Source of the DNA: an uncultured Spirochaetia bacterium
GTDB taxonomy: Bacteria > Desulfobacterota_D > UBA1144 > Nemesobacterales > CSP1-2
Assembly (NCBI GenBank): GCA_964636885.1
Contig: CAZWVA010000003.1
Coordinates: 11,678 to 75,677, forward strand
Length of the DNA stretch: 64,000 nt
Reading direction: 5' to 3'
In this document: positions 1,768 through 19,139 of the stretch, piece after piece
How positions within the stretch are numbered: the stretch's first letter is position 1
Layout: each line of letters opens with the position of its first letter
Notes under the pieces: generated by a model
Told to the model about the DNA's origin: nothing
What the model saw: the letters and a program-made list of their open reading frames with translations, nothing else
Databases searched by the model: none
Made by a program: the position numbers and the translations under genes

Positions 1768-2451
1768 CTATCTCCACTGCTCTTTTTCTATGTGCTTTAC
1801 CTTGATTAGAGAGGCGGCGTCTGTTCCAATCCTTAGGGATTTTCCTCTGACCTTAAGAATGAATGAGCCTCCAAAGGGTTCCTTCTTTTGTACGGTGAAT
1901 GGGGTGTCAGGGATGAGGCCGAGATCATCGAGATACTGAAGGAGTTTCGGGTCCTCGTCCGGAACCTCAGACACTATACCGCTTTCCCCTTCTTTCATTT
2001 CGGATAGACAGATCAGTTCTTCATCCCTAAGCACAAGCTCGGGGCTGGGTATAGGGGAGCCATGCGGGTCGCGGGTAGGGTGATTCAGGAGCTCTGCCAT
2101 TCTCTTCTCCACCTCCTCGGATATAACGTGTTCCCATTTCTCGGCCTCATCGTGAACCTTGTCCCAGGGGAGTCCGAGTGCCTCGTGGAGGTACTGTTCT
2201 ATGAGGCGGTGATGCCTTATTACCTCGAGTGCTATCTTCTCTCCGGCCGGCGTTAGGACGGCGCCCCTATAGGGCTCGTGCTCTACCAGTTGGAGATCGA
2301 CAAGCCTTTTAACCATCTGCGTTACCGTGGGCGGGGATACCTTCATTATCTTGGCAAGATCGTTTGTATTGGCTTTTCCCTTTTTCCTAAGGAGGTTAAA
2401 GATCGTTTTTAAGTAATCTTCCATAACGGAGGAGAGTTGTGTTCGCACCAT
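1768..2451 (-). CDS. DtxR/IdeR-family metal-dependent transcriptional repressor with a C-terminal SH3-like/FeoA domain
   Basis: The MEDYLKTIF...TNDLAKIMKVSPPTVTQMVKRL segment matches the DtxR-family HTH. The metal-binding and dimerisation core and a C-terminal FeoA-like tail are present. The likely start is the ATG at 2451 with a GAGGT RBS; the track start at 2466 is a TTG. It lies adjacent to the mntH-like transporter. Confidence 0.8.
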   Translation of the reverse strand: MVRTQLSSVMEDYLKTIFNLLRKKGKANTNDLAKIMKVSPPTVTQMVKRLVDLQLVEHEPYRGAVLTPAGEKIALEVIRHHRLIEQYLHEALGLPWDKVHDEAEKWEHVISEEVEKRMAELLNHPTRDPHGSPIPSPELVLRDEELICLSEMKEGESGIVSEVPDEDPKLLQYLDDLGLIPDTPFTVQKKEPFGGSFILKVRGKSLRIGTDAASLIKVKHIEKEQWR

Positions 2452-2528
2452 CAAATTATACCTCAACGGGGGATCAAACTGTATACCCTTTCACTGTATT
2501 ATGCTCCCTCCTAGGCGGTCATTACCTT

Positions 2529-4436
2529 TCATTTTAGGGGCACAACAAGGACACTGGCCCGAACCCTGTGTCTTACCCTCTCTACGGTCGTGCCGTGTAG
2601 GATATCGGAGACCCCCGAGTGACCGTGGCCTCCTAGAATCACGAGGTCTATATCGAGCTCATTTATCATTCGAGCAAGCTCCGTAGCCGGGTTTCCGGTT
2701 CCCAATCGCCACTCGGCGTCGATACCTATCCTGCGGAGTTCAAGTGTGAGCTCTTCCAGCCGTTCCTTATCGCTTAGTGTCTCTCGATCGGCGGCCTCTT
2801 TCCCCATAACGAGTGCGGCGGGGCTTTCAACTACATGCAGGAGAACCACCTTGGCTCCGCTATCTTGTGCTATACGCCTTGCCTCTGCCAGAAGCTTCAT
2901 CACTCCATCCGAGAAATCGAGGGCCACGGCCACACGCCTGTATGGCCGCGGTGCCGGTAGCACCGCCTTATGGGTCGGTACAGGACCGTAAACCACTGCC
3001 CGTGGCATCCTGAGTTTCTTTATCCATGGGCGGAGGGTTATGTATACGAGCAGAAACCCGACGACTATGATTAGGGGTAAAACTATCATCCGAACCATCC
3101 AGGCCTTCTCCCCTGCGCTTAGGAGCCACCCTCCGACCTCGCCTATAACCAGTTTTACGTTGAGGGAAACGATTATGGATGTTGCTATCCAGGCGACTAC
3201 ACGGAGCCAGGGTGGGATGACGAATCCCCCCATACGGCGCTCATCGGATACGAAGTGTATGAGAGGGATAATGGCAAAGGGGAGCTGTAATGAAAGAACC
3301 ACCTGGCTCAGCACCAGTAGAGAACCTGTGGAGTTTTCGCCAAAATACCAGATCCCGATTACTGCTGGGAGTACGGCAAACATTCGCGTTATCAACCTGC
3401 GGATCCAGGGGCGGATTCGGAGGTTAAGGTATCCCTCCATGACGACCTGACCGGCCAGGGTTCCAGTAATAGTAGAGCTCTGCCCTGAGGCAAGAAGGGC
3501 GACTGCAAAGGCAAAGGGTGCTATGGATGCCCCGAGAAGCGGTTCGAGTAGACGATATGCGTCCTCGATCTCCGCCACGTTATAGTGACCGCTTCTATAG
3601 AAGACCGCGGCCGCCATGATTAGAATGGCCGAGTTTACAAAGAAGGCGGCGTTAAGTGCGAGGGCGGAGTCGATCGTATTCCATCTAATCGCCTGTCTTA
3701 TCTCCTTAGGGTCGTGTCCGACCTGGCGTGTCTGAACGAGGGAGGAGTGCAGGTAGAGGTTATGAGGCATCACCGTAGCCCCAAGAATACCCATGGCGAT
3801 ATAAAGTGCATCTCTACCCGGCAGTGAGGGAACGAATCCGCGTGCAATCCCTCCCCAATCGGGCTTGGCTAGTAGGATCTCTATAAGGAGACCCGCGCCA
3901 ATAGTGGCCACCAACGATAGGATCACGGCCTCTAGCTTCCTGATGCCAAACCGAGAGAGGGATAGGAGTAGGAGTACATCCAGGGTCGTTAGCAACACCC
4001 CGTATAGGAGCGGTAGACCGAAGAGCAGCTTTAGTGCAATGGCGGAACCGAGAACCTCCGCAAGGTCACATGCTATGATGGCGATTTCGGCGAGTACATA
4101 GAGAGGGATATTTATAAGACCTGGATACTCTTCACGGTTTGCCTGTGCTAGATCGCGACGGGCAACGACGCCAAGACGGGCCGAGAGGCTCTGGAGAAGA
4201 ACCGCCATCAGGTTGGACATGAGGAGCACCCATATGAGTTTATAGTTGTATCGGCTTCCTCCAGCCAGATCGGTAGCCCAGTTGCCGGGGTCCATGTATC
4301 CCACAGAGACCATGAGGGCTGGTCCGCTAAAGGTAAGCCAATGCCGCCACCAACTCGACCCGCCACTCGGTAGGGGTACCGACTCATTAACCTCCGCTAA
4401 GGATCTCTGTTGATAATGGGAAGGATCGGGTTTCAT
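2529..4436 (-). CDS. mntH: NRAMP-family Mn2+/Fe2+:H+ symporter (MntH) fused to a C-terminal universal stress protein (UspA) domain
   Basis: The N-terminal about 440 aa are multi-TM with the NRAMP signature region GYMDPGNWATDLAGGS. The C-terminal about 150 aa (VAVALDFSDG...LVILGGHGHSG...VLVVP) is a Usp fold. Confidence 0.85.
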   Translation of the reverse strand: MKPDPSHYQQRSLAEVNESVPLPSGGSSWWRHWLTFSGPALMVSVGYMDPGNWATDLAGGSRYNYKLIWVLLMSNLMAVLLQSLSARLGVVARRDLAQANREEYPGLINIPLYVLAEIAIIACDLAEVLGSAIALKLLFGLPLLYGVLLTTLDVLLLLSLSRFGIRKLEAVILSLVATIGAGLLIEILLAKPDWGGIARGFVPSLPGRDALYIAMGILGATVMPHNLYLHSSLVQTRQVGHDPKEIRQAIRWNTIDSALALNAAFFVNSAILIMAAAVFYRSGHYNVAEIEDAYRLLEPLLGASIAPFAFAVALLASGQSSTITGTLAGQVVMEGYLNLRIRPWIRRLITRMFAVLPAVIGIWYFGENSTGSLLVLSQVVLSLQLPFAIIPLIHFVSDERRMGGFVIPPWLRVVAWIATSIIVSLNVKLVIGEVGGWLLSAGEKAWMVRMIVLPLIIVVGFLLVYITLRPWIKKLRMPRAVVYGPVPTHKAVLPAPRPYRRVAVALDFSDGVMKLLAEARRIAQDSGAKVVLLHVVESPAALVMGKEAADRETLSDKERLEELTLELRRIGIDAEWRLGTGNPATELARMINELDIDLVILGGHGHSGVSDILHGTTVERVRHRVRASVLVVPLK

Positions 4437-4766: not shown

Positions 4767-6086
4767 ATGAATATGTCAGATAGAACAATGATCCCCAGGC
4801 AGGTCAAAGAAAAAGATCGAAGTGAATTAATCAGCCGTTCTCTCCTTAAAGACTACAGGTCGGTCCGCGGGTTTAGCGAGGATCTCTGCAGACCGCTTGT
4901 AACCGAGGATTACGTCATCCAGTCCATGCCAGATGTGAGCCCGACAAAATGGCACCTAGCCCATACGAGTTGGTTTTTTGAAACGTTTGTCCTCGAACAC
5001 GTAGACCCTGGGTATAGGCCTCTGGATCCCAGGTATAAGTACCTTTTTAATTCCTACTACGTTCAGGTTGGGGCAAGGCACGCCCGTCCACAGCGCGGGC
5101 TCCTATCGAGGCCCACGGTAGAGGAGGTCTATCTATATAGGCACCGTGTGGACGAGCACATGATCGGGTTTCTTGAAAGCGCCGACGAGTCGGAGGTAGA
5201 GAGGATCGCCCCTGTTATAGAGATAGGAATCCATCATGAACAACAGCACCAGGAACTCATGGTCACGGATATAAAGCACGTTTTTTCTGTGAACCCGCTC
5301 CGTCCGGTGTATATCACAAAACATGAAAACCCAAAATCCCGTTCCATACCTGGTATCAGATGGATTGTCTTCCCAGAGGGGGTGTATCTCATAGGGCACG
5401 AGGGGGAGGGTTTTGCCTATGATAACGAGTGCCCACGCCACAGGGAATTTGTGGGGGCTTTCCTTATAGCCTCACGTCTTGTGACCAATCGCGAGTATCT
5501 GGCTTTCATGGAAGACGGGGGTTATGAGAGGCCTGAGCTCTGGCTATCGGACGGCTGGTATGCGGTTGAGGCAAACGGCTGGAAGGCTCCCCTTTACTGG
5601 GAAGGGATCGACGGGGCCTGGTGGTACTTTACCCTTTCTGGCATGCGCGAGGTAGATCTGGACGAGCCCGTATGTCACGTAAGCTACTACGAGGCGGACG
5701 CCTACGCCCGCTGGGCTGGGGCGAGGCTCCCAACAGAAGCCGAATGGGAGATCGCCGCATCTAAACCATCTATAGAGGGAAACTTCATTGAAGATGGGAG
5801 GCACCATCCCGTGCCTTTAAGCGATGAGGGGGCCAGTGGTGACCTACTTCAGATGTTTGGGGATGTGTGGGAGTGGACGAGTAGTCCCTACACCCCGTAT
5901 CCGGGTTTTAAAACGCTCCCCGGAGCGCTTGGGGAATACAACGGAAAATTCATGTCCAATCAGATGGTGCTCCGCGGAGGCTCCTGTGCGACGCCTAGAT
6001 CCCATATAAGAAGGACCTATAGAAACTTCTTCCCTCCCAGTGCCAGGTGGCAGTTTATGGGGATAAGGCTTGCGAAAGATGCATGA
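4767..6086 (+). CDS. egtB: Ergothioneine biosynthesis sulfoxide synthase EgtB (DinB_2 domain plus FGE-sulfatase-like domain)
   Basis: The N-terminal DinB-like four-helix metal-binding region (HLAHTSWFFE...HHEQQHQEL) and the C-terminal FGE-sulfatase fold (VSYYEADAYARWAG...RGGS) match the characteristic EgtB architecture. An AGGGAGGG RBS precedes the ATG. Confidence 0.8.
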   Translation: MNMSDRTMIPRQVKEKDRSELISRSLLKDYRSVRGFSEDLCRPLVTEDYVIQSMPDVSPTKWHLAHTSWFFETFVLEHVDPGYRPLDPRYKYLFNSYYVQVGARHARPQRGLLSRPTVEEVYLYRHRVDEHMIGFLESADESEVERIAPVIEIGIHHEQQHQELMVTDIKHVFSVNPLRPVYITKHENPKSRSIPGIRWIVFPEGVYLIGHEGEGFAYDNECPRHREFVGAFLIASRLVTNREYLAFMEDGGYERPELWLSDGWYAVEANGWKAPLYWEGIDGAWWYFTLSGMREVDLDEPVCHVSYYEADAYARWAGARLPTEAEWEIAASKPSIEGNFIEDGRHHPVPLSDEGASGDLLQMFGDVWEWTSSPYTPYPGFKTLPGALGEYNGKFMSNQMVLRGGSCATPRSHIRRTYRNFFPPSARWQFMGIRLAKDA

Positions 6087-7041
6087 GAACATAAAGGCGG
6101 TAAAGGGATTCGAGGCCGAGTGGGATTACCTCATTGCCGAGGTGATGGAGGGGCTTAGAAAACCCCAAAAGGAACTCCCCTGCAAGCTCTTTTACGACGA
6201 GAGGGGCTCGCTTCTATTCGATGAGATATGCGGGCTTAAGGAGTACTACCTCACGAGAACGGAGATGGCCATCATGGATAAGTATATCTCCGAGATCTCA
6301 GATACACTCGGCAGCGGGTGTCTACTTATAGAGCTTGGAAGCGGTAGCAGTAAAAAGATAAGGCTGATACTGGATCATCTGGAAGAGCCTGCAGGATATA
6401 TGCCGATTGATATCTCGTTTAAGCACCTGATGAAGTCTGTGTCCGCACTTGCAAGGGACTATCCCCGACTCAGGATAGTCCCGGTATACGCCGATTACAC
6501 TCAACCCTTTTCCCTACCCCGCTTTTACATTCCCTACTCCCGGAAGGTCGTATATTTCCCTGGCTCGACTATAGGGAATTTTACGCGAGAATACGCGGGC
6601 CTTTTTCTCGAACGGATCGCTAGATTGACTGGTGGTGGAAGCGGGCTTCTAATAGGGGTCGATCTTAAAAAGGATAAAAGGACACTTGAGGCTGCTTATA
6701 ACGATGGTAAAGGGGTTACGGCCGCGTTTAATCTAAACATGCTTGAGAGGCTAAACCGTGAACTGGGTGCGGATTTCGATCTCAGTAGGTGGAGGCATCA
6801 CGCTTTCTATAATGACGGTGTGGGAAGGATAGAGATGCACCTTGTGAGTCTCGAAGATCAATACGTGCATATAGGTGACGGTGGGGTTTTCTTCGAGAAG
6901 GGAGAGACCATACTTACCGAGTATTCCTACAAGTACACGTTGGAGGAGTTTCGGGAACTGGTTTCCGACGCATTTCGGATTGAACGCGTCTGGACGGATG
7001 AGAAGCGTAGATTCAGCGTGCAGTACCTTTCCGTTCGTTGA
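6079..7041 (+). CDS. egtD: L-histidine N-alpha-methyltransferase EgtD
   Basis: The motifs LFYDERGSLLFDEICGLKEYYLTRTE and ELGSGSSKK (SAM-binding) are EgtD hallmarks. The ATG at 6079 overlaps the egtB stop (ATGCATGA), and the track start at 6070 is a TTG. It forms a two-gene egtBD unit. Confidence 0.8.
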   Translation: MHENIKAVKGFEAEWDYLIAEVMEGLRKPQKELPCKLFYDERGSLLFDEICGLKEYYLTRTEMAIMDKYISEISDTLGSGCLLIELGSGSSKKIRLILDHLEEPAGYMPIDISFKHLMKSVSALARDYPRLRIVPVYADYTQPFSLPRFYIPYSRKVVYFPGSTIGNFTREYAGLFLERIARLTGGGSGLLIGVDLKKDKRTLEAAYNDGKGVTAAFNLNMLERLNRELGADFDLSRWRHHAFYNDGVGRIEMHLVSLEDQYVHIGDGGVFFEKGETILTEYSYKYTLEEFRELVSDAFRIERVWTDEKRRFSVQYLSVR

Positions 7042-7346
7042 CAAGGGGTAAGGACCGTTGCCCACCCGGACGATTCCATAACGCCGTATTTTTGCCTCTC
7101 GTGCAGGTTTTTTCACCAGATGGGATACTTTGCCTAGGGGTGAGGATTGGAGAGGGTGTAGAGATTCACTATGGATTTAATAAAGGGAAAATACCTTCCG
7201 GGATCGTGACGTGTCACCTAGGGTTTTCTCAGGGAATATCGAAATAGAGAAGAAAGGTTGGCTAGACGGTTAATCTATTGTCCGGTTTTAGGGGTTAGAG
7301 TGTGCTTTTCTTTATCTCTAACTTATTTTAAAATTAGAAAACATAT

Positions 7347-8702
7347 ATGTCCGATACCGATATAAGAACCAAATTAAAAAGCGAACCAGATATATTTCTT
7401 AGACTGACCGAAAACTCTATGCTGGTTGCTGCAAGTTTAAGAGACAAATTTCTAGATCAGACGCTAGATATAGCAAGTAAGATAAGAAAAAGATTGGGGA
7501 TAGGAAGTCTTAAAGGTTTTGGAATTAAGAAAGTATCTCCAGATTATAAGACCGACTCTAGTAAAATAACAGTGGCTTTTATTGACGGTGGTATTGGTGA
7601 AGCAGAAATTTTCCTAAAAGTTCCTCTAATTGTAAGAGGAGGTATTTTCAAAATAAAAGAGGGCGAGAGAGACTTAGAGAAACGCGAGATCTTTGAGTTT
7701 TTTCCAATACTAATTGGTGATTTGGAAGGAGGTGAAAAGGGAAGCGGCGACTATGCATCGGTTGTGAGAATAATTATTGAGTTATCAGCTATTTTAAAAG
7801 TTCTTGATGATCCCAAATATTCAGACGTGAACTTAATAATGCTTCATGGACCTATTCTTTACAGACTATCAGCTTATTCAAGGCATTGGTTTTTTGAAAA
7901 CGATATACTTACTATGACTCAAGGCTCAAAATATTTAATCAACGACTTTAGAGAAAACATCAAAGAATGTCAGTTAGAAGAATGCGTATGTAGTTCTTGG
8001 AAGAGTGAGCAAAAGTTAGTTGCAAACTGCTTTATCGCATTTTTGTTGAATCAGATTATAGATAAATGTCTTAAAAAGTATATAGATTTTGTAGGAGTTG
8101 TAGAGAGACCTGACGCAACAGAGATAGGAACAATTCTTTTTGAGCATCTTCTTAAGGAAGAACCTGATTTAGCTAAAAACTATTTGGGTAGAACAGTAAA
8201 GAATTATAAAAATGATGCAAAAGAAATAATTAGGATCGGAAATTATAATGATCCATTGTTGTTCTCGATAATTTTAAGTCCTGGCGAATACTTAGATTTT
8301 TATGAAGCAGAAGAACGATATAGTGGGTTTGTTGGGAAATTTCAAGGGTTTGACCGTAAATTACCGAAAATATCCTATACCTATTTAAAGCCGGTAGAGA
8401 ATGCAATGGCAATAAGAGTTGAATTTCCGCAAAAACTCACTGATTCAAGAAAAGAAGCGGGTTTATATAAAACTTATGAATACTCTAGGTTGCTACCTAA
8501 CTATGCATTCCCGATAGGGCTTGACGTAGCTGATAAGTTTGCAAAAGTTCCTAAATGGATGGTTGAAGCTTATCGTAAATATATTCTTTTTAATTTTGGC
8601 AGATTAACTTTAGATAAGGAATTAGAAGAGCATGAATTACGTAAAATTTTAATGTTCTTCTATTTGCATAGAAGAGATTTTCAATCTAGACCTAAGATTT
8701 AG
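7347..8702 (+). CDS. nurA: NurA-family 5'-3' nuclease (RNase H-like fold)
   Basis: The N-terminal motif KITVAFIDGGIGEAE matches the NurA signature FVAIDGGSFG. The C-terminal YAFPIGLDVADKFAKV matches the NurA YPFPLLKAHMDVRF motif. It lies immediately upstream of HerA with a 2-nt gap. Confidence 0.7.
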   Translation: MSDTDIRTKLKSEPDIFLRLTENSMLVAASLRDKFLDQTLDIASKIRKRLGIGSLKGFGIKKVSPDYKTDSSKITVAFIDGGIGEAEIFLKVPLIVRGGIFKIKEGERDLEKREIFEFFPILIGDLEGGEKGSGDYASVVRIIIELSAILKVLDDPKYSDVNLIMLHGPILYRLSAYSRHWFFENDILTMTQGSKYLINDFRENIKECQLEECVCSSWKSEQKLVANCFIAFLLNQIIDKCLKKYIDFVGVVERPDATEIGTILFEHLLKEEPDLAKNYLGRTVKNYKNDAKEIIRIGNYNDPLLFSIILSPGEYLDFYEAEERYSGFVGKFQGFDRKLPKISYTYLKPVENAMAIRVEFPQKLTDSRKEAGLYKTYEYSRLLPNYAFPIGLDVADKFAKVPKWMVEAYRKYILFNFGRLTLDKELEEHELRKILMFFYLHRRDFQSRPKI

Positions 8703-8704
8703 GA

Positions 8705-10444
8705 GTGGAAAGTATGGGGAATAGTAAAAATATAATTGGTACTGTGGTGGGTGTTACAAATCCTAGGGAATTTTATTTTTCTATAGCTCCTGGAAAGGCT
8801 CAACTTCAGGAAATTGTTGCTGTTGATGCCTATGAATTAGATGAATCTGGAGAGAAAAAAGATAAGACAGTAAGAGTTTGGGCTAAGGTCGTCGAAATAG
8901 AGCGAATAAATCCGCTTTTTCCACAAGAAGTTGCTCAGGAACTCTCTTTTCAGCAAATGAGTGCTTTTGACACTGTTATTCCTCTTTCAAGAGAGATGAT
9001 AACAGCAAAGTGTGCTGTCCTCGGGTTAGAAAATAAAAAGGGAGAACTTCAACCTTTAACATACCCTCTTCAACCTGCATCTAGTGTATATATTCCGTCT
9101 AAAAAGGACGTAGAAAAATTAGTTATAGGAGACATCCCTGATTATAGAAAACTTCATATAGGGCATCTGCGCTCTAAGCCGGAGTTTAAGGTTTTCATAG
9201 ATGGACATGCCATAGTAGCAAGGCACTTAGCTGTTCTTGCCGCAACAGGGGCTGGTAAGACAGTTACAGTTAGACGAATTATTGAGGAACTATCGAGTCG
9301 AAAATACCCTATTCTAATATTTGATCCGCATGGAGATTATATTGGGTTAAAAGAATTACCAGAACTTAAAGGAAGTGTAGAGGTTTATCTTCCAGTATTT
9401 CGTGTATTGGAGGAGTCCTTTGACAACCTCATCCTTTTATTATCTGGCCTTTCTAGTGAAGATATAACTCCACCTCAAGAAACATTAATAGGTGGTTTAT
9501 TAGACTTATTTAATACCAAAGAAGGAAGAGAATTTATAGATAATTACATAAGACCTATAAGTGAATCTAGGAGAACTGAATATAGACTGAATATAGAGTC
9601 TCATCATTTTTATGCGATGAACGAAGTATTGGATATATTAGAAAGGCTTCAAACTGAGGAAAGTTGGGAAGAAGTGAGGAATGAATTAAATACTATTTCT
9701 AGAAGACTTGTAAGAGGAATGTCTACATCCATTAGACCTGTAAGCCGTATATTATCTAGGGCTGCTCTATCTTATTCGCAGATTAAAAAAATTAATAGAT
9801 TTAAGCGAGACTTCGGAGTAGAGCTACCTAGTCCTCAAGATATAAGTTCACTAATATCTCCTGGAAAGATAAGCATAATAAACCTAGAGGGATATAGTAA
9901 CCTAAGTAGCGTTGTGGCTAGCAATATACTAAGGCAACTTCTTAATTTAAGAGTCGAAGAAAAAGTACACCGTTTTTTAACTGTTATTGAGGAAGCACAT
10001 AATTTTATTCCTAGTTCGATTGAGAGTGCAGTGCAAAGTAGCGCTATATCAGTGATAAGACAGATTGCAACTGAAGGACGGAAATACGGTATGGGACTTA
10101 TTTTGATAAGCCAACGTCCATCTAGAGTGGATTCAACAATTGTTTCGCAATGCAATTCTTTTATAGTCTTAAAGATTATCAATCCTGGTGATCAGAAGTA
10201 TGTTAGGGATGTTGTTGAATCAATTGGTGAAGAAGATGCTAAGATTCTTCCAGATTTAGCTACCGGAGAAGCATTAATAACAGGGGAATGCGTTAGGTTT
10301 CCTATGTTGGCTAGAATCGAGAGACCTAGATCGGTTGGTAGGCACGAAGAAGAAGATTTTATAAAAGAAATACTTGATAAGGAAAGTAACGTTGTTTCTC
10401 AAAAATCTAAGACTAAGGAGTTGCCCCTTTTGAAAAAGCAATGA
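8705..10444 (+). CDS. herA: HerA-family (DUF87, FtsK/HerA superfamily) hexameric DNA translocase/helicase ATPase
   Basis: An N-terminal HAS-barrel-like region is followed by a Walker A (LAATGAGKTVTV), a Walker B (LTVIEEAHNF) and the QRPS segment typical of HerA. It is paired with NurA. Confidence 0.8.
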   Translation: MESMGNSKNIIGTVVGVTNPREFYFSIAPGKAQLQEIVAVDAYELDESGEKKDKTVRVWAKVVEIERINPLFPQEVAQELSFQQMSAFDTVIPLSREMITAKCAVLGLENKKGELQPLTYPLQPASSVYIPSKKDVEKLVIGDIPDYRKLHIGHLRSKPEFKVFIDGHAIVARHLAVLAATGAGKTVTVRRIIEELSSRKYPILIFDPHGDYIGLKELPELKGSVEVYLPVFRVLEESFDNLILLLSGLSSEDITPPQETLIGGLLDLFNTKEGREFIDNYIRPISESRRTEYRLNIESHHFYAMNEVLDILERLQTEESWEEVRNELNTISRRLVRGMSTSIRPVSRILSRAALSYSQIKKINRFKRDFGVELPSPQDISSLISPGKISIINLEGYSNLSSVVASNILRQLLNLRVEEKVHRFLTVIEEAHNFIPSSIESAVQSSAISVIRQIATEGRKYGMGLILISQRPSRVDSTIVSQCNSFIVLKIINPGDQKYVRDVVESIGEEDAKILPDLATGEALITGECVRFPMLARIERPRSVGRHEEEDFIKEILDKESNVVSQKSKTKELPLLKKQ

Positions 10445-11721
10445 AATATTTCATTCCCGACTGGGAAGACCGTTTAGACCCAAATTATGATTTTCAAACA
10501 GACACGTTTGGAAGAGAAAGGAATGAAGCCTATAAAACTGATATTTACGCACATCAAATTTTTTCTAAGCCCCCGTATGATGGGATATTAATCAGCCTAG
10601 CCCTTTTTAATAGTAGAAGTAAAATTACTTTAAAAGAGAGTAAGAATGGAGATAAAAATATAAGGGAACTGAGAACGATCAAAGATTATCTAAAAATTCC
10701 CGCTTCGAGCAATCTAGAGGTGATGGGAGATTGTGGGGCATTTAGCTATATTAATGAAGATACCCCTCCTGCTGAGTATGATACAAAATTGGTTGCTGAT
10801 GTTTACCATAATCTGGGTTTTGATTATGGTGTTTCAGTGGATCACATGATTCCTGATTTTATCTTGAAGGAAGATAGGAAAGGAAGAAAAAAGAAAATAA
10901 AGCTTACCAAGCAGCAAAAGGAAAAACGTAGACAACTAACCCTAGACAATGCTGAAGAGTTTTTGCGATATCATAGAGAGAGAAATTATGATTTTATTCC
11001 TATTGGTGTGGCGCAAGGATCGGATCCAATATTCTATGCTGATTCTGTGTACAATCTATTGGAGATGGGATACAGATACATAGGGTTAGGAAGTTTAGTC
11101 CCTAAGAGAGACGATGAAATCGTAGACATACTCAAAGCTGTAAAAAGAGTTATAGACCGGCATTCTAAAGAAGAGAATATAAGAATCCATCTTTTTGGAG
11201 TATTGCGGATTAAAAAGCTAGTCGAGTTTAGGTCATTAGGGGTAACCAGTTTTGATAGTGCTTCCTACCTCAGGAAAGCATGGCTACGCTCGGACCAAAA
11301 CTACCTTGCTCCAGATAAAAATTGGTTTTCAGCAATTAGGATTCCTTACTCTAATAATCCACGCCTTGTCAAAAATGCAAAGGAAGACGGTATCTCGGAA
11401 AGAGAACTAAAACAAAGAGAAGAGGAATGTTTAAAGTTGATAAGAGAATACGCTCAAAAACCAAAAAATTCAAACCTAGAAAGAGTATTAGACGCCATAA
11501 TGAACTATGATTCCTTGCTTCTTCGAGGCTTTGAGGGTAACCATCATCGGGAGAAGTATATGGCTACACTCTTGGCTAGACCCTGGGAGAAATGTAATTG
11601 CGAGGTCTGCAAATCTCTTGGTGTAGATGTTGTGATATTTCGTGGTGCGAATCGAAATAAAAGAAGAGGATTCCACAATACTAAAATCTTTTATGACCTC
11701 TACCTTAACTCAGAAGAATAA
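10441..11721 (+). CDS. tRNA-guanine-transglycosylase-fold protein, DpdA-like (predicted nucleobase-exchange enzyme, possibly acting on DNA)
   Basis: TGT catalytic-site equivalents are present: MGDCGAFSY (cf. TDSGGFQ), GVAQGS (cf. GIVQGG), YIGLGSL (cf. YAIGGL) and SFDSASYLR (cf. MFDCVLPTR, the nucleophile Asp). A C-terminal CxCxxC...H zinc site (CNCEVC...H) is present and there is no PUA domain. The ATGA overlaps the herA stop. Confidence 0.7.
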   Translation: MKYFIPDWEDRLDPNYDFQTDTFGRERNEAYKTDIYAHQIFSKPPYDGILISLALFNSRSKITLKESKNGDKNIRELRTIKDYLKIPASSNLEVMGDCGAFSYINEDTPPAEYDTKLVADVYHNLGFDYGVSVDHMIPDFILKEDRKGRKKKIKLTKQQKEKRRQLTLDNAEEFLRYHRERNYDFIPIGVAQGSDPIFYADSVYNLLEMGYRYIGLGSLVPKRDDEIVDILKAVKRVIDRHSKEENIRIHLFGVLRIKKLVEFRSLGVTSFDSASYLRKAWLRSDQNYLAPDKNWFSAIRIPYSNNPRLVKNAKEDGISERELKQREEECLKLIREYAQKPKNSNLERVLDAIMNYDSLLLRGFEGNHHREKYMATLLARPWEKCNCEVCKSLGVDVVIFRGANRNKRRGFHNTKIFYDLYLNSEE

Positions 11722-12169
11722 GATTCTAATCATTGTTCCCTGCGGAAAAAAGAAAATCTGGGATAAAATCCCAAATAAAGGTAGAGTTTATGCCAAAGAC
11801 GCATATATAAGCCCTTACTTTAAACTCTGTCGGAAGTATGCAGAAAAATTCGCTGATAAGTGGGTGATCCTTTCGGCAAAGTATGGGTTTATTGAACCAG
11901 ATTTTACTATTCCAAAAAATTATGACGTTTCATTTAACAACTCTAAAAATGAGGTTGTATCTTTTCAAAGACTCAAAGTTCAGGTAAAGAAGTTAAGATT
12001 TCAAGATTATCAATCGGTTATTATTTTAGGTGGAAAAGAATATATCGATATAGTTCAAAGGGTATTGAAAGGTTCCAGGAGACGAATAAAAGTCCCGCTT
12101 GAGGGTCTAGGAATTGGAAAAAGACAAGCCAAGATTAAAGAGGCACTGACCAAAAGGATTTCTTTCTGA
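11693..12169 (+). CDS. Small Rossmann-like hypothetical protein (158 aa) with an N-terminal ILIIVPCGKKK motif
   Basis: The ATG at 11693 is in frame with ORF 11642..12169 and overlaps the end of the TGT-like gene by about 29 nt. A β-strand-Gly/Lys loop pattern occurs twice (IVPCGKKK; VIILGGKEY). No family is recognised by eye. Confidence 0.45.
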   Translation: MTSTLTQKNKILIIVPCGKKKIWDKIPNKGRVYAKDAYISPYFKLCRKYAEKFADKWVILSAKYGFIEPDFTIPKNYDVSFNNSKNEVVSFQRLKVQVKKLRFQDYQSVIILGGKEYIDIVQRVLKGSRRRIKVPLEGLGIGKRQAKIKEALTKRISF

Positions 12170-17840: not shown

Positions 17841-19139
17841 ATGAGATACGATGTTCTTACCATTTTCCCACAGTTTTTTGAATCGCCTTTCTCCTTTGGA
17901 ATCCTCAAGAAGGCACAGGAAAGGGGATTAATAGAGATAAACACACACGATATAAGGGCCTTTGCAGAGGATAAACACAGAACCGTGGACGACAAACCCT
18001 ATGGTGGTGGGAGCGGAATGGTGATGAAACCAGGGCCACTTGGAAGAGCAATAGAATCTGTAAGAATCGAGGGGGCAAGATCCCTCGTTATACTCACCAC
18101 TCCTCAGGGAGAGGTTTTTTCGGATGGTATCGCAAGGGAGTTTTCCGAGTACGAACAACTCGTCATAATCTGCGGAAGGTACGAGGGCATAGACGAGAGG
18201 ATTAGAGAGATCTATGTGGATAGGGAGATCTCGATAGGGGATTACGTGCTCTCTGGCGGCGAATACGCCGCTTCTGTAATCATAGATGCGGTATCTAGGT
18301 TTATCCCCGGTGTACTCGGAAACGAGGAGTCCCCATACGACGATTCCTTTAAAGAGGGCCTCCTTGAGTATCCTCAATACACAAGACCAGAGGTCTACAG
18401 GGGAAAAGGGGTTCCTGAGGTCATACTCTCCGGAAATCACAGGGAGGTAGAGAGGTGGAGGAGAAGGGAGAGTATTAGAAGGACATTTTTACGAAGACCC
18501 GATTTGCTTGACAAGACGGTTCTTACGGCCGATGACCTAGGATTCATAGACGAGTTAAAAAAACAAAACCCCCCTTCTTTTAGGGCTTATGTTGCATTGG
18601 TTCATTATCCGGTTTACAATAAAAAATTTAAAGTCGTTACAACTGCCTTTGTAAACCTCGATGTTCATGACCTGGCAAGGGCGGCTAGAACTTACGGGAT
18701 AAAGGGGTTCTTTCTAGTGCAGCCGGTTATGGAGCAACAGGCGTTGGTAAAAAGGGTGCTTTGGCACTGGACGGAGGGGCCGGGTGCCTCTTTTAACCCG
18801 ACAAGGGCAGATGCGCTTAGGCTCGTTCGTATAAAGAACTCCCTCGACGAGGTTGTTAAAGAGATTGAAAGAGCGGAGGGGGTAAGACCCAAGGTGGTCG
18901 TAACCGATGCTAGACCCAGGGAGAATATGATAGGCTACTCGGAGCTTAGAGAAAGGGTATCGTCTGGAAAGGAACCCTACCTGATACTCTTTGGTACGGG
19001 GTGGGGGATAACCAGAGAGGTTATGGAGTGTGCCGATTATGTACTAAAGCCCATTCGAGGATTTACCGATTATAACCATCTTTCCGTAAGGAGTGCGGCG
19101 TCTATAATTCTAGATAGGTTGTTTTCGAGTAAAATATGA
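17841..19139 (+). CDS. trmD: tRNA (guanine37-N1)-methyltransferase TrmD fused to a C-terminal SpoU/TrmH-like SPOUT methyltransferase domain
   Basis: The N-terminal about 245 aa are canonical TrmD (MRYDVLTIFPQFF...GGGSGMVM...ICGRYEGIDER...). The C-terminal about 185 aa carry SpoU motifs (NLDVHDLARAARTYG...; GTGWGI...; NHLSVRSAASIILDRL). Confidence 0.85.
   Translation: MRYDVLTIFPQFFESPFSFGILKKAQERGLIEINTHDIRAFAEDKHRTVDDKPYGGGSGMVMKPGPLGRAIESVRIEGARSLVILTTPQGEVFSDGIAREFSEYEQLVIICGRYEGIDERIREIYVDREISIGDYVLSGGEYAASVIIDAVSRFIPGVLGNEESPYDDSFKEGLLEYPQYTRPEVYRGKGVPEVILSGNHREVERWRRRESIRRTFLRRPDLLDKTVLTADDLGFIDELKKQNPPSFRAYVALVHYPVYNKKFKVVTTAFVNLDVHDLARAARTYGIKGFFLVQPVMEQQALVKRVLWHWTEGPGASFNPTRADALRLVRIKNSLDEVVKEIERAEGVRPKVVVTDARPRENMIGYSELRERVSSGKEPYLILFGTGWGITREVMECADYVLKPIRGFTDYNHLSVRSAASIILDRLFSSKI

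Follow-up and report, generated by a model that had tools for sequence, protein, structure and literature searches.

Four co-directional open reading frames (ORFs) at positions 7347 to 12169 form one operon in the ORF list of the 64,000-nucleotide (nt) stretch analyzed here (the window, taken from contig CAZWVA010000003.1 of assembly GCA_964636885.1, from an uncultured bacterium). In order, they encode a NurA-family nuclease, a HerA-family ATPase, a DNA-guanine transglycosylase of the DpdA family, and a small DUF6884 protein. This gene combination is not the product of chance and is shared by dozens of unrelated bacteria and archaea. Taken with the gene contexts described below, the sequences suggest that the cassette may well be a compact, mobile, restriction-modification-like defense system related to Dpd, a reading that we hold with middling confidence. 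The features of the locus, with protein lengths in amino acids (aa), are as follows.

7042 to 7346, + strand: upstream intergenic region of 305 nt, separating the NurA ATG from egtD (end at 7041) and AT-rich as far as that ATG
7347 to 8702, + strand: NurA-family RNase H-like nuclease, 451 aa
8714 to 10444, + strand: HerA/FtsK-family hexameric ATPase-translocase, 576 aa (alternative GTG start at 8705, 579 aa)
10441 to 11721, + strand: DpdA, a DNA-guanine transglycosylase of the TGT superfamily, 426 aa, belonging to a DpdB-less clade
11693 to 12169, + strand: DUF6884 protein with a YaaA-like fold, 158 aa (alternative GTG start at 11642, 175 aa)

Layout and protein families of the cassette

The first-pass annotation of the window had described the operon as joined by start/stop overlaps, and this description holds for all but the first junction. 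HerA and DpdA overlap by 4 nt (ATGA), and the DUF6884 start lies inside the 3' end of dpdA, giving an overlap of 29 nt (from ATG 11693) or 80 nt (from GTG 11642). There is no overlap between NurA and HerA: NurA ends with TAG at 8700-8702, and the HerA start lies 2 to 11 nt further on. The likely HerA start is ATG 8714, which is preceded by an AGGAG Shine-Dalgarno sequence that overlaps the NurA stop and which was also picked by the JGI gene caller on Ga0373638_0000115, a 184.7-kb metagenome contig that matches the window.

The GC content of the cassette is 35.8%, versus 51% upstream and 48% downstream, so that the cassette stands out as a sharp compositional island. This low-GC composition and the patchy distribution of the cassette are consistent with horizontal acquisition. 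Judged from base composition, the island would begin in the 7042-7346 region, and the operon promoter is presumed to lie there. A consensus promoter scan of the + strand of that region gave no match, and a promoter/terminator scan of the cassette found sites no more numerous than in shuffled sequence. Neither att-like repeats nor a tRNA or integrase was recognized at the borders of the island, for which no dedicated repeat search was run.

All four family calls of the first-pass annotation were correct, and every NurA, HerA, and TGT motif quoted in it was present. NurA contains FIDGG (residues 78 to 82) and GLDVADKF (residues 391 to 398), and its fold was confirmed by a fold search that had the TdpABC structure (PDB 8wet) among its matches; an alignment profile of NurA found no match among PDB sequences. 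In S. solfataricus, the catalytic acidic triad of NurA consists of D58, E116, and D133. At the position that aligns with the third catalytic residue, the window protein carries HGP, with an invariant histidine (H167), and the other aligned NurA lineages carry DGP. A fragment with at least 90% identity to the NurA gene was present in a Thermodesulfobacteriota metagenome-assembled genome (MAG), a weak hint at the phylum of the host. HerA matched the Pfam families DUF87 (1e-29) and HerA_C (1e-10), the PADLOC HerA model PDLC04105 (2e-57), solved HerA structures (1.6e-39), and TdpA (1.7e-7). Its Walker A motif is GAGKT (residues 179 to 183), and its Walker B motif is VIEEAH (residues 424 to 429). 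Solved NurA-HerA complexes consist of a toroidal NurA dimer and a hexameric HerA ATPase. No Mre11 or Rad50 genes adjoin the cassette in the window.

The third protein had been annotated as a TGT-like enzyme with intact active and zinc sites. This description was borne out, and the profile check did not reject the TGT fold. The 426-aa protein scored 422 bits against the NCBIfam DpdA equivalog NF041059 (cutoff, 200 bits) and matched both the PADLOC DpdA model (4e-118) and S. enterica Montevideo DpdA (PDB 7ui4; 5e-74) over residues 1 to 419, i.e., over its full length. By these profile matches, it is assigned to the DpdA family proper and is not just TGT-like. GDCGAF, FDSAS, and the zinc motif CNCEVC...H are all present. 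Residues shown or proposed to be functional in the S. Montevideo enzyme (PMC10164549) were then mapped onto the window protein. D97 of the window protein stands in place of the general acid/base D95, F101 in place of the stacking residue F99, D134 in place of D130, and D272 in place of the nucleophile D256; the wedge residue F265 of the Ins8 insertion corresponds to W281, which is still aromatic, and the zinc ligands are C385, C387, C390, and H412. None of these mapped positions varied among 28 aligned sequences of the clade. The S. Montevideo enzyme exchanges guanine by double-displacement chemistry with a covalent enzyme-DNA intermediate (PMC10164549).

The 158-aa protein matched Pfam PF21818 (DUF6884) above the gathering score (9e-24); a DUF6884 profile gave only chance matches to PDB sequences. 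When a profile of 28 DUF6884 sequences was compared with one of 41 sequences of canonical DpdC (hhalign), the probability was 96.9% (E, 2e-10; 124 columns). DUF6884 aligned to DpdC residues 15 to 183, that is, to the N-terminal half, and its motifs C-x3-K and LSAxxG aligned with the conserved DpdC motifs NCTxRK and vSAGLG. By this comparison, DUF6884 is a minimal, remote relative of the N-terminal half of DpdC. Since DpdA and the DpdC-like DUF6884 correspond to two of the three Dpd modification proteins, the cassette appears to be a variant of the known Dpd system. The other components were sought as well. A phmmer search with DpdB of a canonical locus (L050) found no DpdB among the window ORFs at E ≤ 10, no full-length DpdC was present in the cassette, and none of the four cassette proteins matched DpdD to DpdK in PADLOC, against which the rest of the window was not scanned.

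DpdA-DUF6884 loci in other genomes, metagenomes, and viruses

A scan of one genome per species yielded 80 DpdA loci, of which 46 were canonical and 34 were closer to the window (individual loci are cited below by L numbers). The canonical loci were proteobacterial Dpd islands with DpdA proteins 33 to 37% identical to that of the window. DpdB and preQ0 genes were present in all 46 of these and DpdC in 43, and DpdD and DpdJ were confirmed in L050. The 34 closer loci, with DpdA proteins 41 to 59% identical to the window protein, contained no DpdC, and DpdB was found at 0/34 of them versus 46/46 canonical loci. Their hosts were archaea (methanogens, Methanoperedens, Thermoplasmata, and Theionarchaea) and bacteria (Dehalococcoidia, Bacillota, Bacteroidota, Ignavibacteria, Aquificota, Poribacteria, and Nitrospirota). 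DUF6884 adjoined DpdA or was fused to it in 32 of the 34 loci, and such fusions accounted for 7 of the top 120 DpdA homologues.

The partners of this pair varied. A UvrD-like helicase and a PD-(D/E)XK nuclease were encoded at 28 of the 34 loci (Pfam confirmed in L007 and L022), usually in the order DUF6884-UvrD-PDDEXK-DpdA. NurA-HerA was found at six loci, three times in place of the UvrD/PD-(D/E)XK pair (Thermodesulfovibrio L004 and two Hydrogenothermaceae, L028 and L037) and three times alongside it (two Poribacteria, L022 and L024, and one Desulfurobacteriaceae, L029). A third partner module was present in L010 (1505-7355) and in a metagenome locus, L100 (9322-19615). It comprised a BrxC/BrxD-like ATPase of ∼430 aa and two unknown proteins of ∼355 to 390 aa and ∼550 to 570 aa; in L100, it occurred together with NurA-HerA and a faint NucS-like protein. 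This module may bridge the DpdA-DUF6884 cassettes and the BREX-related capture (BRC) systems. What stays constant across these loci is the core of TGT/DpdA and DUF6884, and what varies is the ATP-driven motor together with the nuclease that belongs to it.

The NurA-HerA pairs themselves were not of one kind. Between the window and L004, DpdA was 59% identical, HerA was only 25% identical, and NurA had no significant BLAST similarity, and the Aquificota and Poribacteria loci used a third NurA-HerA lineage. The occurrence of at least three unrelated NurA-HerA lineages beside DpdA indicates repeated independent recruitment. In several phyla, at least 13 more loci combined all four families, with three NurA-HerA lineages represented. 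Among them, L095 and L096 retained the window gene order, with DpdA 84% identical and an MNT/HepT toxin-antitoxin pair adjoining, and L088 and L089 carried the same families as the window cassette. In an Ignavibacteriae MAG, the cassette was split over two contigs (L085 and L005). L097 encoded DUF6884, a 611-aa protein, HerA, and DpdA amid toxin-antitoxin modules inside a trp operon; the 611-aa protein had no Pfam match and occupied the position that NurA has in L004. L028 adjoined Cas3, and a transposase was also among the neighbors seen outside the window. In L084 (4957-17359), a FolE2, QueE, QueC, and QueD operon was divergent from NurA-HerA-UvrD-PDDEXK-DUF6884-DpdA, flanked upstream by an HNH protein and downstream by an N6/N4 DNA methyltransferase. 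No other locus found had the full preQ0 biosynthetic set. Stand-alone NurA-HerA pairs of the same lineage as that of the window were also found (L086, L087, and L090).

Metagenomes were scanned with NurA as the seed, and 54 NurA-HerA loci with enough flanking sequence were counted. Both DUF6884 and a TGT-family gene were present at 42 of these, neither was present at 9, TGT only at 3, and DUF6884 only at none (Fisher p = 4e-8, for loci that are phylogenetically non-independent). Co-occurrence and co-variation of the four families across unrelated genomes, which the first-pass annotation had put forward as a check on the system, were thus seen both here and at the 13 or more loci described above. 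The frequent metagenome form (L098-L177) had the order DUF6884, NurA, HerA, and a short, more divergent TGT of ∼345 aa, with a C-terminal extension of ∼100 aa on DUF6884 (for example, L145, 9168-14296, and L128, 8883-14342). Most of the 42 loci used the short TGT, and a few (e.g., L098-L100) carried the window-type DpdA. The short TGT scored above the PF01702 gathering score and matched the PADLOC DpdA model only weakly; compared with the DpdA clade, it gave an hhalign probability of 95.4%, with the aspartates of DNGAF and DS.DS conserved.

The window-type DpdA clade was found in only 2 of 2.9 million viral contigs. One of these (L093, 2617-4517; IMG/VR UViG_3300002925_000073), recognizable as a phage contig by genes for a Mu-type portal and a large terminase, carried DUF6884-DpdA. 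It had neither NurA-HerA nor UvrD/PDDEXK, and an SNF2 helicase was encoded upstream. No preQ0 genes were present in the 12 kb available of this contig.

DUF6884 was also found in other company. In Bacillus thuringiensis (L091, 7001-7450), a 43% identical DUF6884 had transposase fragments and lysins of prophage type (Amidase_3 and GH25) as its neighbors. Neither a TGT gene nor a helicase-nuclease pair was near it, and DUF6884 therefore does not always depend on those partners. In Petrotoga sp. (L092, 6096-10678), DUF6884 was translationally coupled to a protein of 302 aa that matched the AGOG 8-oxoguanine glycosylase family only faintly, and a type ISP restriction-modification enzyme came next. 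By virtue of that match, the AGOG-like partner may cleave the N-glycosidic bond. The Petrotoga pairing may correspond to the PADLOC candidate system PDC-M57. The window cassette was considered as PDC-M57 and rejected: only DUF6884 matched (PDC-M57A), and the NurA and TGT proteins matched no PDC-M57 model. PDC-M57 is probably a different DUF6884 partnership.

Proposed function and alternative explanations

A working mechanism for a restriction-modification-like system can be outlined. DpdA would swap guanines in host DNA for a 7-deazaguanine base, independently of DpdB, and the base would most likely be preQ0 from the queuosine pathway of the cell. The reaction would follow the double-displacement chemistry of S. 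Montevideo DpdA, whose catalytic Asp pair, stacking residues, and zinc site are kept. DUF6884 would either convert the nitrile of the inserted preQ0 in a DpdC-like manner, via its conserved Cys and Lys, or serve as a DNA-binding, base-flipping accessory at the same sites. HerA, as a hexameric double-stranded DNA translocase, and NurA, as a dimeric nuclease, would load on DNA and degrade it processively unless the modification is met. NurA-HerA would thus be a swappable restriction module, analogous to TdpA/TdpB of TdpABC, and its role in sister loci would be filled by the UvrD-like helicase and PD-(D/E)XK nuclease or by the BrxC/D-like ATPase module. Restriction-modification-like defense is the most economical explanation because a phage carries the core pair alone, because the motor-nuclease part is swapped, and because the loci lie in low-GC or defense gene contexts. 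TdpABC and the canonical Dpd system itself offer precedents. The first-pass annotation had placed NurA-HerA in the partner position of DpdB. This is less likely than a restriction module, as NurA-HerA is swapped with UvrD/PD-(D/E)XK or BrxC/D-like sets and the phage pair has neither. HerA may have a secondary role as an ATP-driven DNA opener for DpdA.

Several observations weigh against restriction-modification-like defense. The immediate flanks of the cassette are housekeeping genes (egtB and egtD upstream and a convergent epimerase, a ClC channel, and ffh downstream). Regex and phmmer searches found no QueC, QueD, QueE, or FolE2 in the 64-kb window, and preQ0 genes adjoined only ∼4 of 128 noncanonical loci, versus 46/46 canonical loci. 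This rarity of preQ0 linkage is the main weakness of the proposal, since it leaves the identity of the inserted base supported by homology and by one locus, L084. Two positions of the base pocket also differ, S. Montevideo H181 being Q192 in the window protein and G207 being S218. Glutamine at position 192 is the state found in tRNA TGTs, and with the altered pocket the substrate of the window DpdA could differ. Canonical DpdA requires the ATPase DpdB for preQ0 insertion (PMC10164549), and the cassette has no DpdB. The NurA-HerA and UvrD/PD-(D/E)XK pairs are classical double-strand-break end-resection machines (PMC3326311). In the Thermodesulfovibrio MAG, DUF6884-NurA-HerA-DpdA (L004, 8648-11825) runs into Mre11-like (Metallophos) and Rad50-like (SMC_N/AAA_27) genes. 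Finally, according to the Pfam authors, YfjM, a DUF6884 protein, interacts with abasic and RNA-base lesions, and they suggest a DNA repair role for DUF6884 (PMC11701544); the Bacillus and Petrotoga contexts of DUF6884 described above belong to the same side of the balance. As a separate observation, the L004 arrangement recalls the archaeal herA-mre11-rad50-nurA repair operon; linkage to Mre11/Rad50 was found only in L004.

Much of this evidence would suit a DNA repair module, in which DpdA and DUF6884 replace or process damaged guanines or abasic sites and the helicase-nuclease pairs resect the resulting breaks. The end-resection role of both pairs, the continuation of L004, the lesion interactions of YfjM, the Petrotoga glycosylase-like partner, and the rarity of linked preQ0 genes would all be accommodated. 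Vertical inheritance would be expected of a core repair pathway, however, and the distribution of the cassette is patchy, consistent with horizontal transfer. Nor does such a pathway sit well with the low-GC island, with neighbors elsewhere that include toxin-antitoxin modules, Cas3, a methyltransferase, and a transposase, with a phage that carries the DpdA-DUF6884 pair, or with the complete preQ0 operon linked to L084, and swapping among three nonhomologous ATPase/nuclease sets is typical of defense systems. We therefore regard a repair module as unlikely. Given the same modest probability is the broader proposal that the TGT enzyme and DUF6884 form the working end of a DNA-targeting mechanism, the motor-nuclease feeding DNA to a base-exchanging or base-excising transglycosylase, in invader immunity or in base-exchange repair of damaged guanine. 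This targeting, nonmarking reading keeps its place because preQ0 linkage is rare, the base pocket is altered, and DUF6884 is paired elsewhere with an AGOG-like glycosylase. Its immunity form, specified as defense without self-marking, is on our assessment quite improbable. HerA would thread invading DNA to the transglycosylase, excision or exchange of guanine or of phage 7-deazaguanine would leave covalent or abasic lesions, and DUF6884 would recognize these for degradation by NurA. The covalent intermediate and guanine exchange of DpdA (PMC10164549), the binding of DNA or lesions by DUF6884 and YaaA family proteins, the absence of preQ0 genes from nearly all loci, and the strict co-inheritance of the four genes are compatible with such an effector, and a preprint reports antiviral defense as a conserved function of diverse DNA glycosylases (bioRxiv 10.1101/2025.10.29.685425). 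A phage with DpdA-DUF6884 alone is nevertheless more easily explained by protective modification than by a host effector, the preQ0 operon of L084 implies that a base is supplied for insertion, and the relatedness of DUF6884 to DpdC suggests that inserted preQ0 is what it acts on.

It is also rather unlikely that the cassette serves modification only, with HerA as an ATP-dependent DNA-opening motor in place of DpdB, NurA as an accessory or editing nuclease, and no restriction. Canonical DpdA needs ATP hydrolysis by DpdB, for which a helicase-like role was proposed (PMC10164549), and almost all of the 34 clade loci, every one of them without DpdB, have some ATP-dependent motor. Yet each motor is paired with a cognate nuclease (NurA or PD-(D/E)XK) that modification alone would not need, and some loci have two helicase-nuclease pairs; the phage locus has neither pair, although an SNF2 helicase lies upstream, and the DpdA-DUF6884 fusions suggest that it is DUF6884 that acts as the accessory partner. 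A fortuitous adjacency of an ordinary NurA-HerA repair pair and an unrelated DpdA-DUF6884 pair would be in keeping with the stand-alone NurA-HerA pairs of the same lineage (L086, L087, L090, and nine metagenome loci). The 4-nt HerA/DpdA overlap, the further loci with all four families in three NurA-HerA lineages, and the 42 metagenome loci make it most improbable, and it is effectively refuted by co-occurrence.

Known systems, neighboring genes, and implications

The cassette was compared with known systems. Canonical Dpd (dpdA to dpdK of S. enterica Montevideo) shares with it a DpdA with the same catalytic residues and a DpdC-related protein, and both combine a DNA modification module with helicase- or nuclease-type proteins in a mobile island. 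Canonical Dpd has DpdB, whereas the cassette does not; it has a DpdC of ∼320 aa (DUF328, converting dPreQ0 to dADG), whereas the cassette has a 158-aa DUF6884 that corresponds only to the N-terminal half; and it has DpdD to DpdK where the cassette has NurA-HerA. It comprises ∼11 or more genes with adjacent preQ0 genes, in contrast to four genes and no adjacent preQ0 genes. TdpABC of thermophiles (PDB 8wet) likewise joins one modification function to a HerA-like TdpA and a NurA-like TdpB (PMC12914056), but TdpC makes a phosphorothioate backbone modification, whereas the cassette has a predicted TGT-fold base-exchange enzyme. TdpB and TdpA are not orthologous to the cassette NurA and HerA, and profile searches found no DndC- or TdpC-like domain in the four cassette proteins. 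BRC pairs a HerA/FtsK translocase with a TGT homologue for which marking of self DNA has been suggested and, like the cassette, has neither DpdB nor DpdC (PMC12839542). Its seven components include PglZ, DUF6079 (BrxC-like), a STAND NTPase, DUF4007, and GNAT, none of which is in the cassette (PglZ, DUF6079/BrxC-like, STAND NTPase, and DUF4007 were also absent from the immediate flanks), and it lacks the NurA and DUF6884 that the cassette has.

Two further comparisons concern parts of the cassette. The archaeal and Deinococcus NurA-HerA pairs resemble it in the NurA fold, the HerA Walker A and B motifs and family matches, and gene adjacency; the cassette differs in having no Mre11/Rad50 linkage, HGP instead of DGP, and an operon with DNA modification genes on a low-GC island. 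Phages carry pairs of DpdA with ArcS2- or DpdC-type proteins, in which a DpdB-independent DpdA acts with a small enzyme that converts the inserted preQ0 (PMC10516641, PMC6884629). Those pairs protect phage DNA and usually come with preQ0 synthesis genes, whereas the cassette is chromosomal and coupled to a nuclease-motor.

Known before this analysis are DpdA, DpdC-like proteins, and NurA-HerA, the combination of modification with HerA/NurA-like restriction (TdpABC), and that of HerA with TGT (BRC). In the searchable full-text literature, which leaves some subscription papers outside its scope, we found no description of DpdA with NurA-HerA, of the DpdB-less DpdA-DUF6884 core, of its UvrD/PD-(D/E)XK or BrxD-like partners, or of the DUF6884-NurA-HerA-short TGT cassette. 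The first-pass annotation had called the system undescribed; this stands for its composition, and what changes is its rank, as it is a variant of the known Dpd system and not a separate kind.

Other genes of the window were noted. Directly upstream of the island, 4767-7041 (+) encodes an EgtB-like protein (DinB_2 and FGE-sulfatase) and an EgtD-like protein (Methyltransf_33) of ergothioneine biosynthesis; the pair has normal GC content and is therefore outside the island. A 432-aa protein at 17841-19139 (+) joins a TrmD tRNA m1G methyltransferase domain (PF01746) to Methyltrn_RNA_4 (PF09936) in an apparently unusual fusion, within the rpsP-rimM-trmD-rplS operon. An Nramp (MntH) transporter with a C-terminal universal stress protein domain is encoded at 1768-4436 (-), with a DtxR/FeoA-type metal regulator adjoining.

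The mechanism of restriction by canonical Dpd is poorly understood, and a four-gene version composed of a DpdB-independent DpdA, a minimal DpdC-like protein, and the structurally well-understood NurA-HerA would be a far more tractable model for the writing and reading of a 7-deazaguanine mark. The family is large and includes many methanogens, Thermoplasmata, and other archaea; no report of genomic 7-deazaguanine modification of DNA in archaeal cells is known. DUF6884 gains a probable context, and helicase-nuclease modules are seen to be swapped around a constant modification core. Should the DNA-targeting reading instead prove true, the cassette would represent immunity by exchange of guanine or 7-deazaguanine on invader DNA, or a base-exchange repair pathway.

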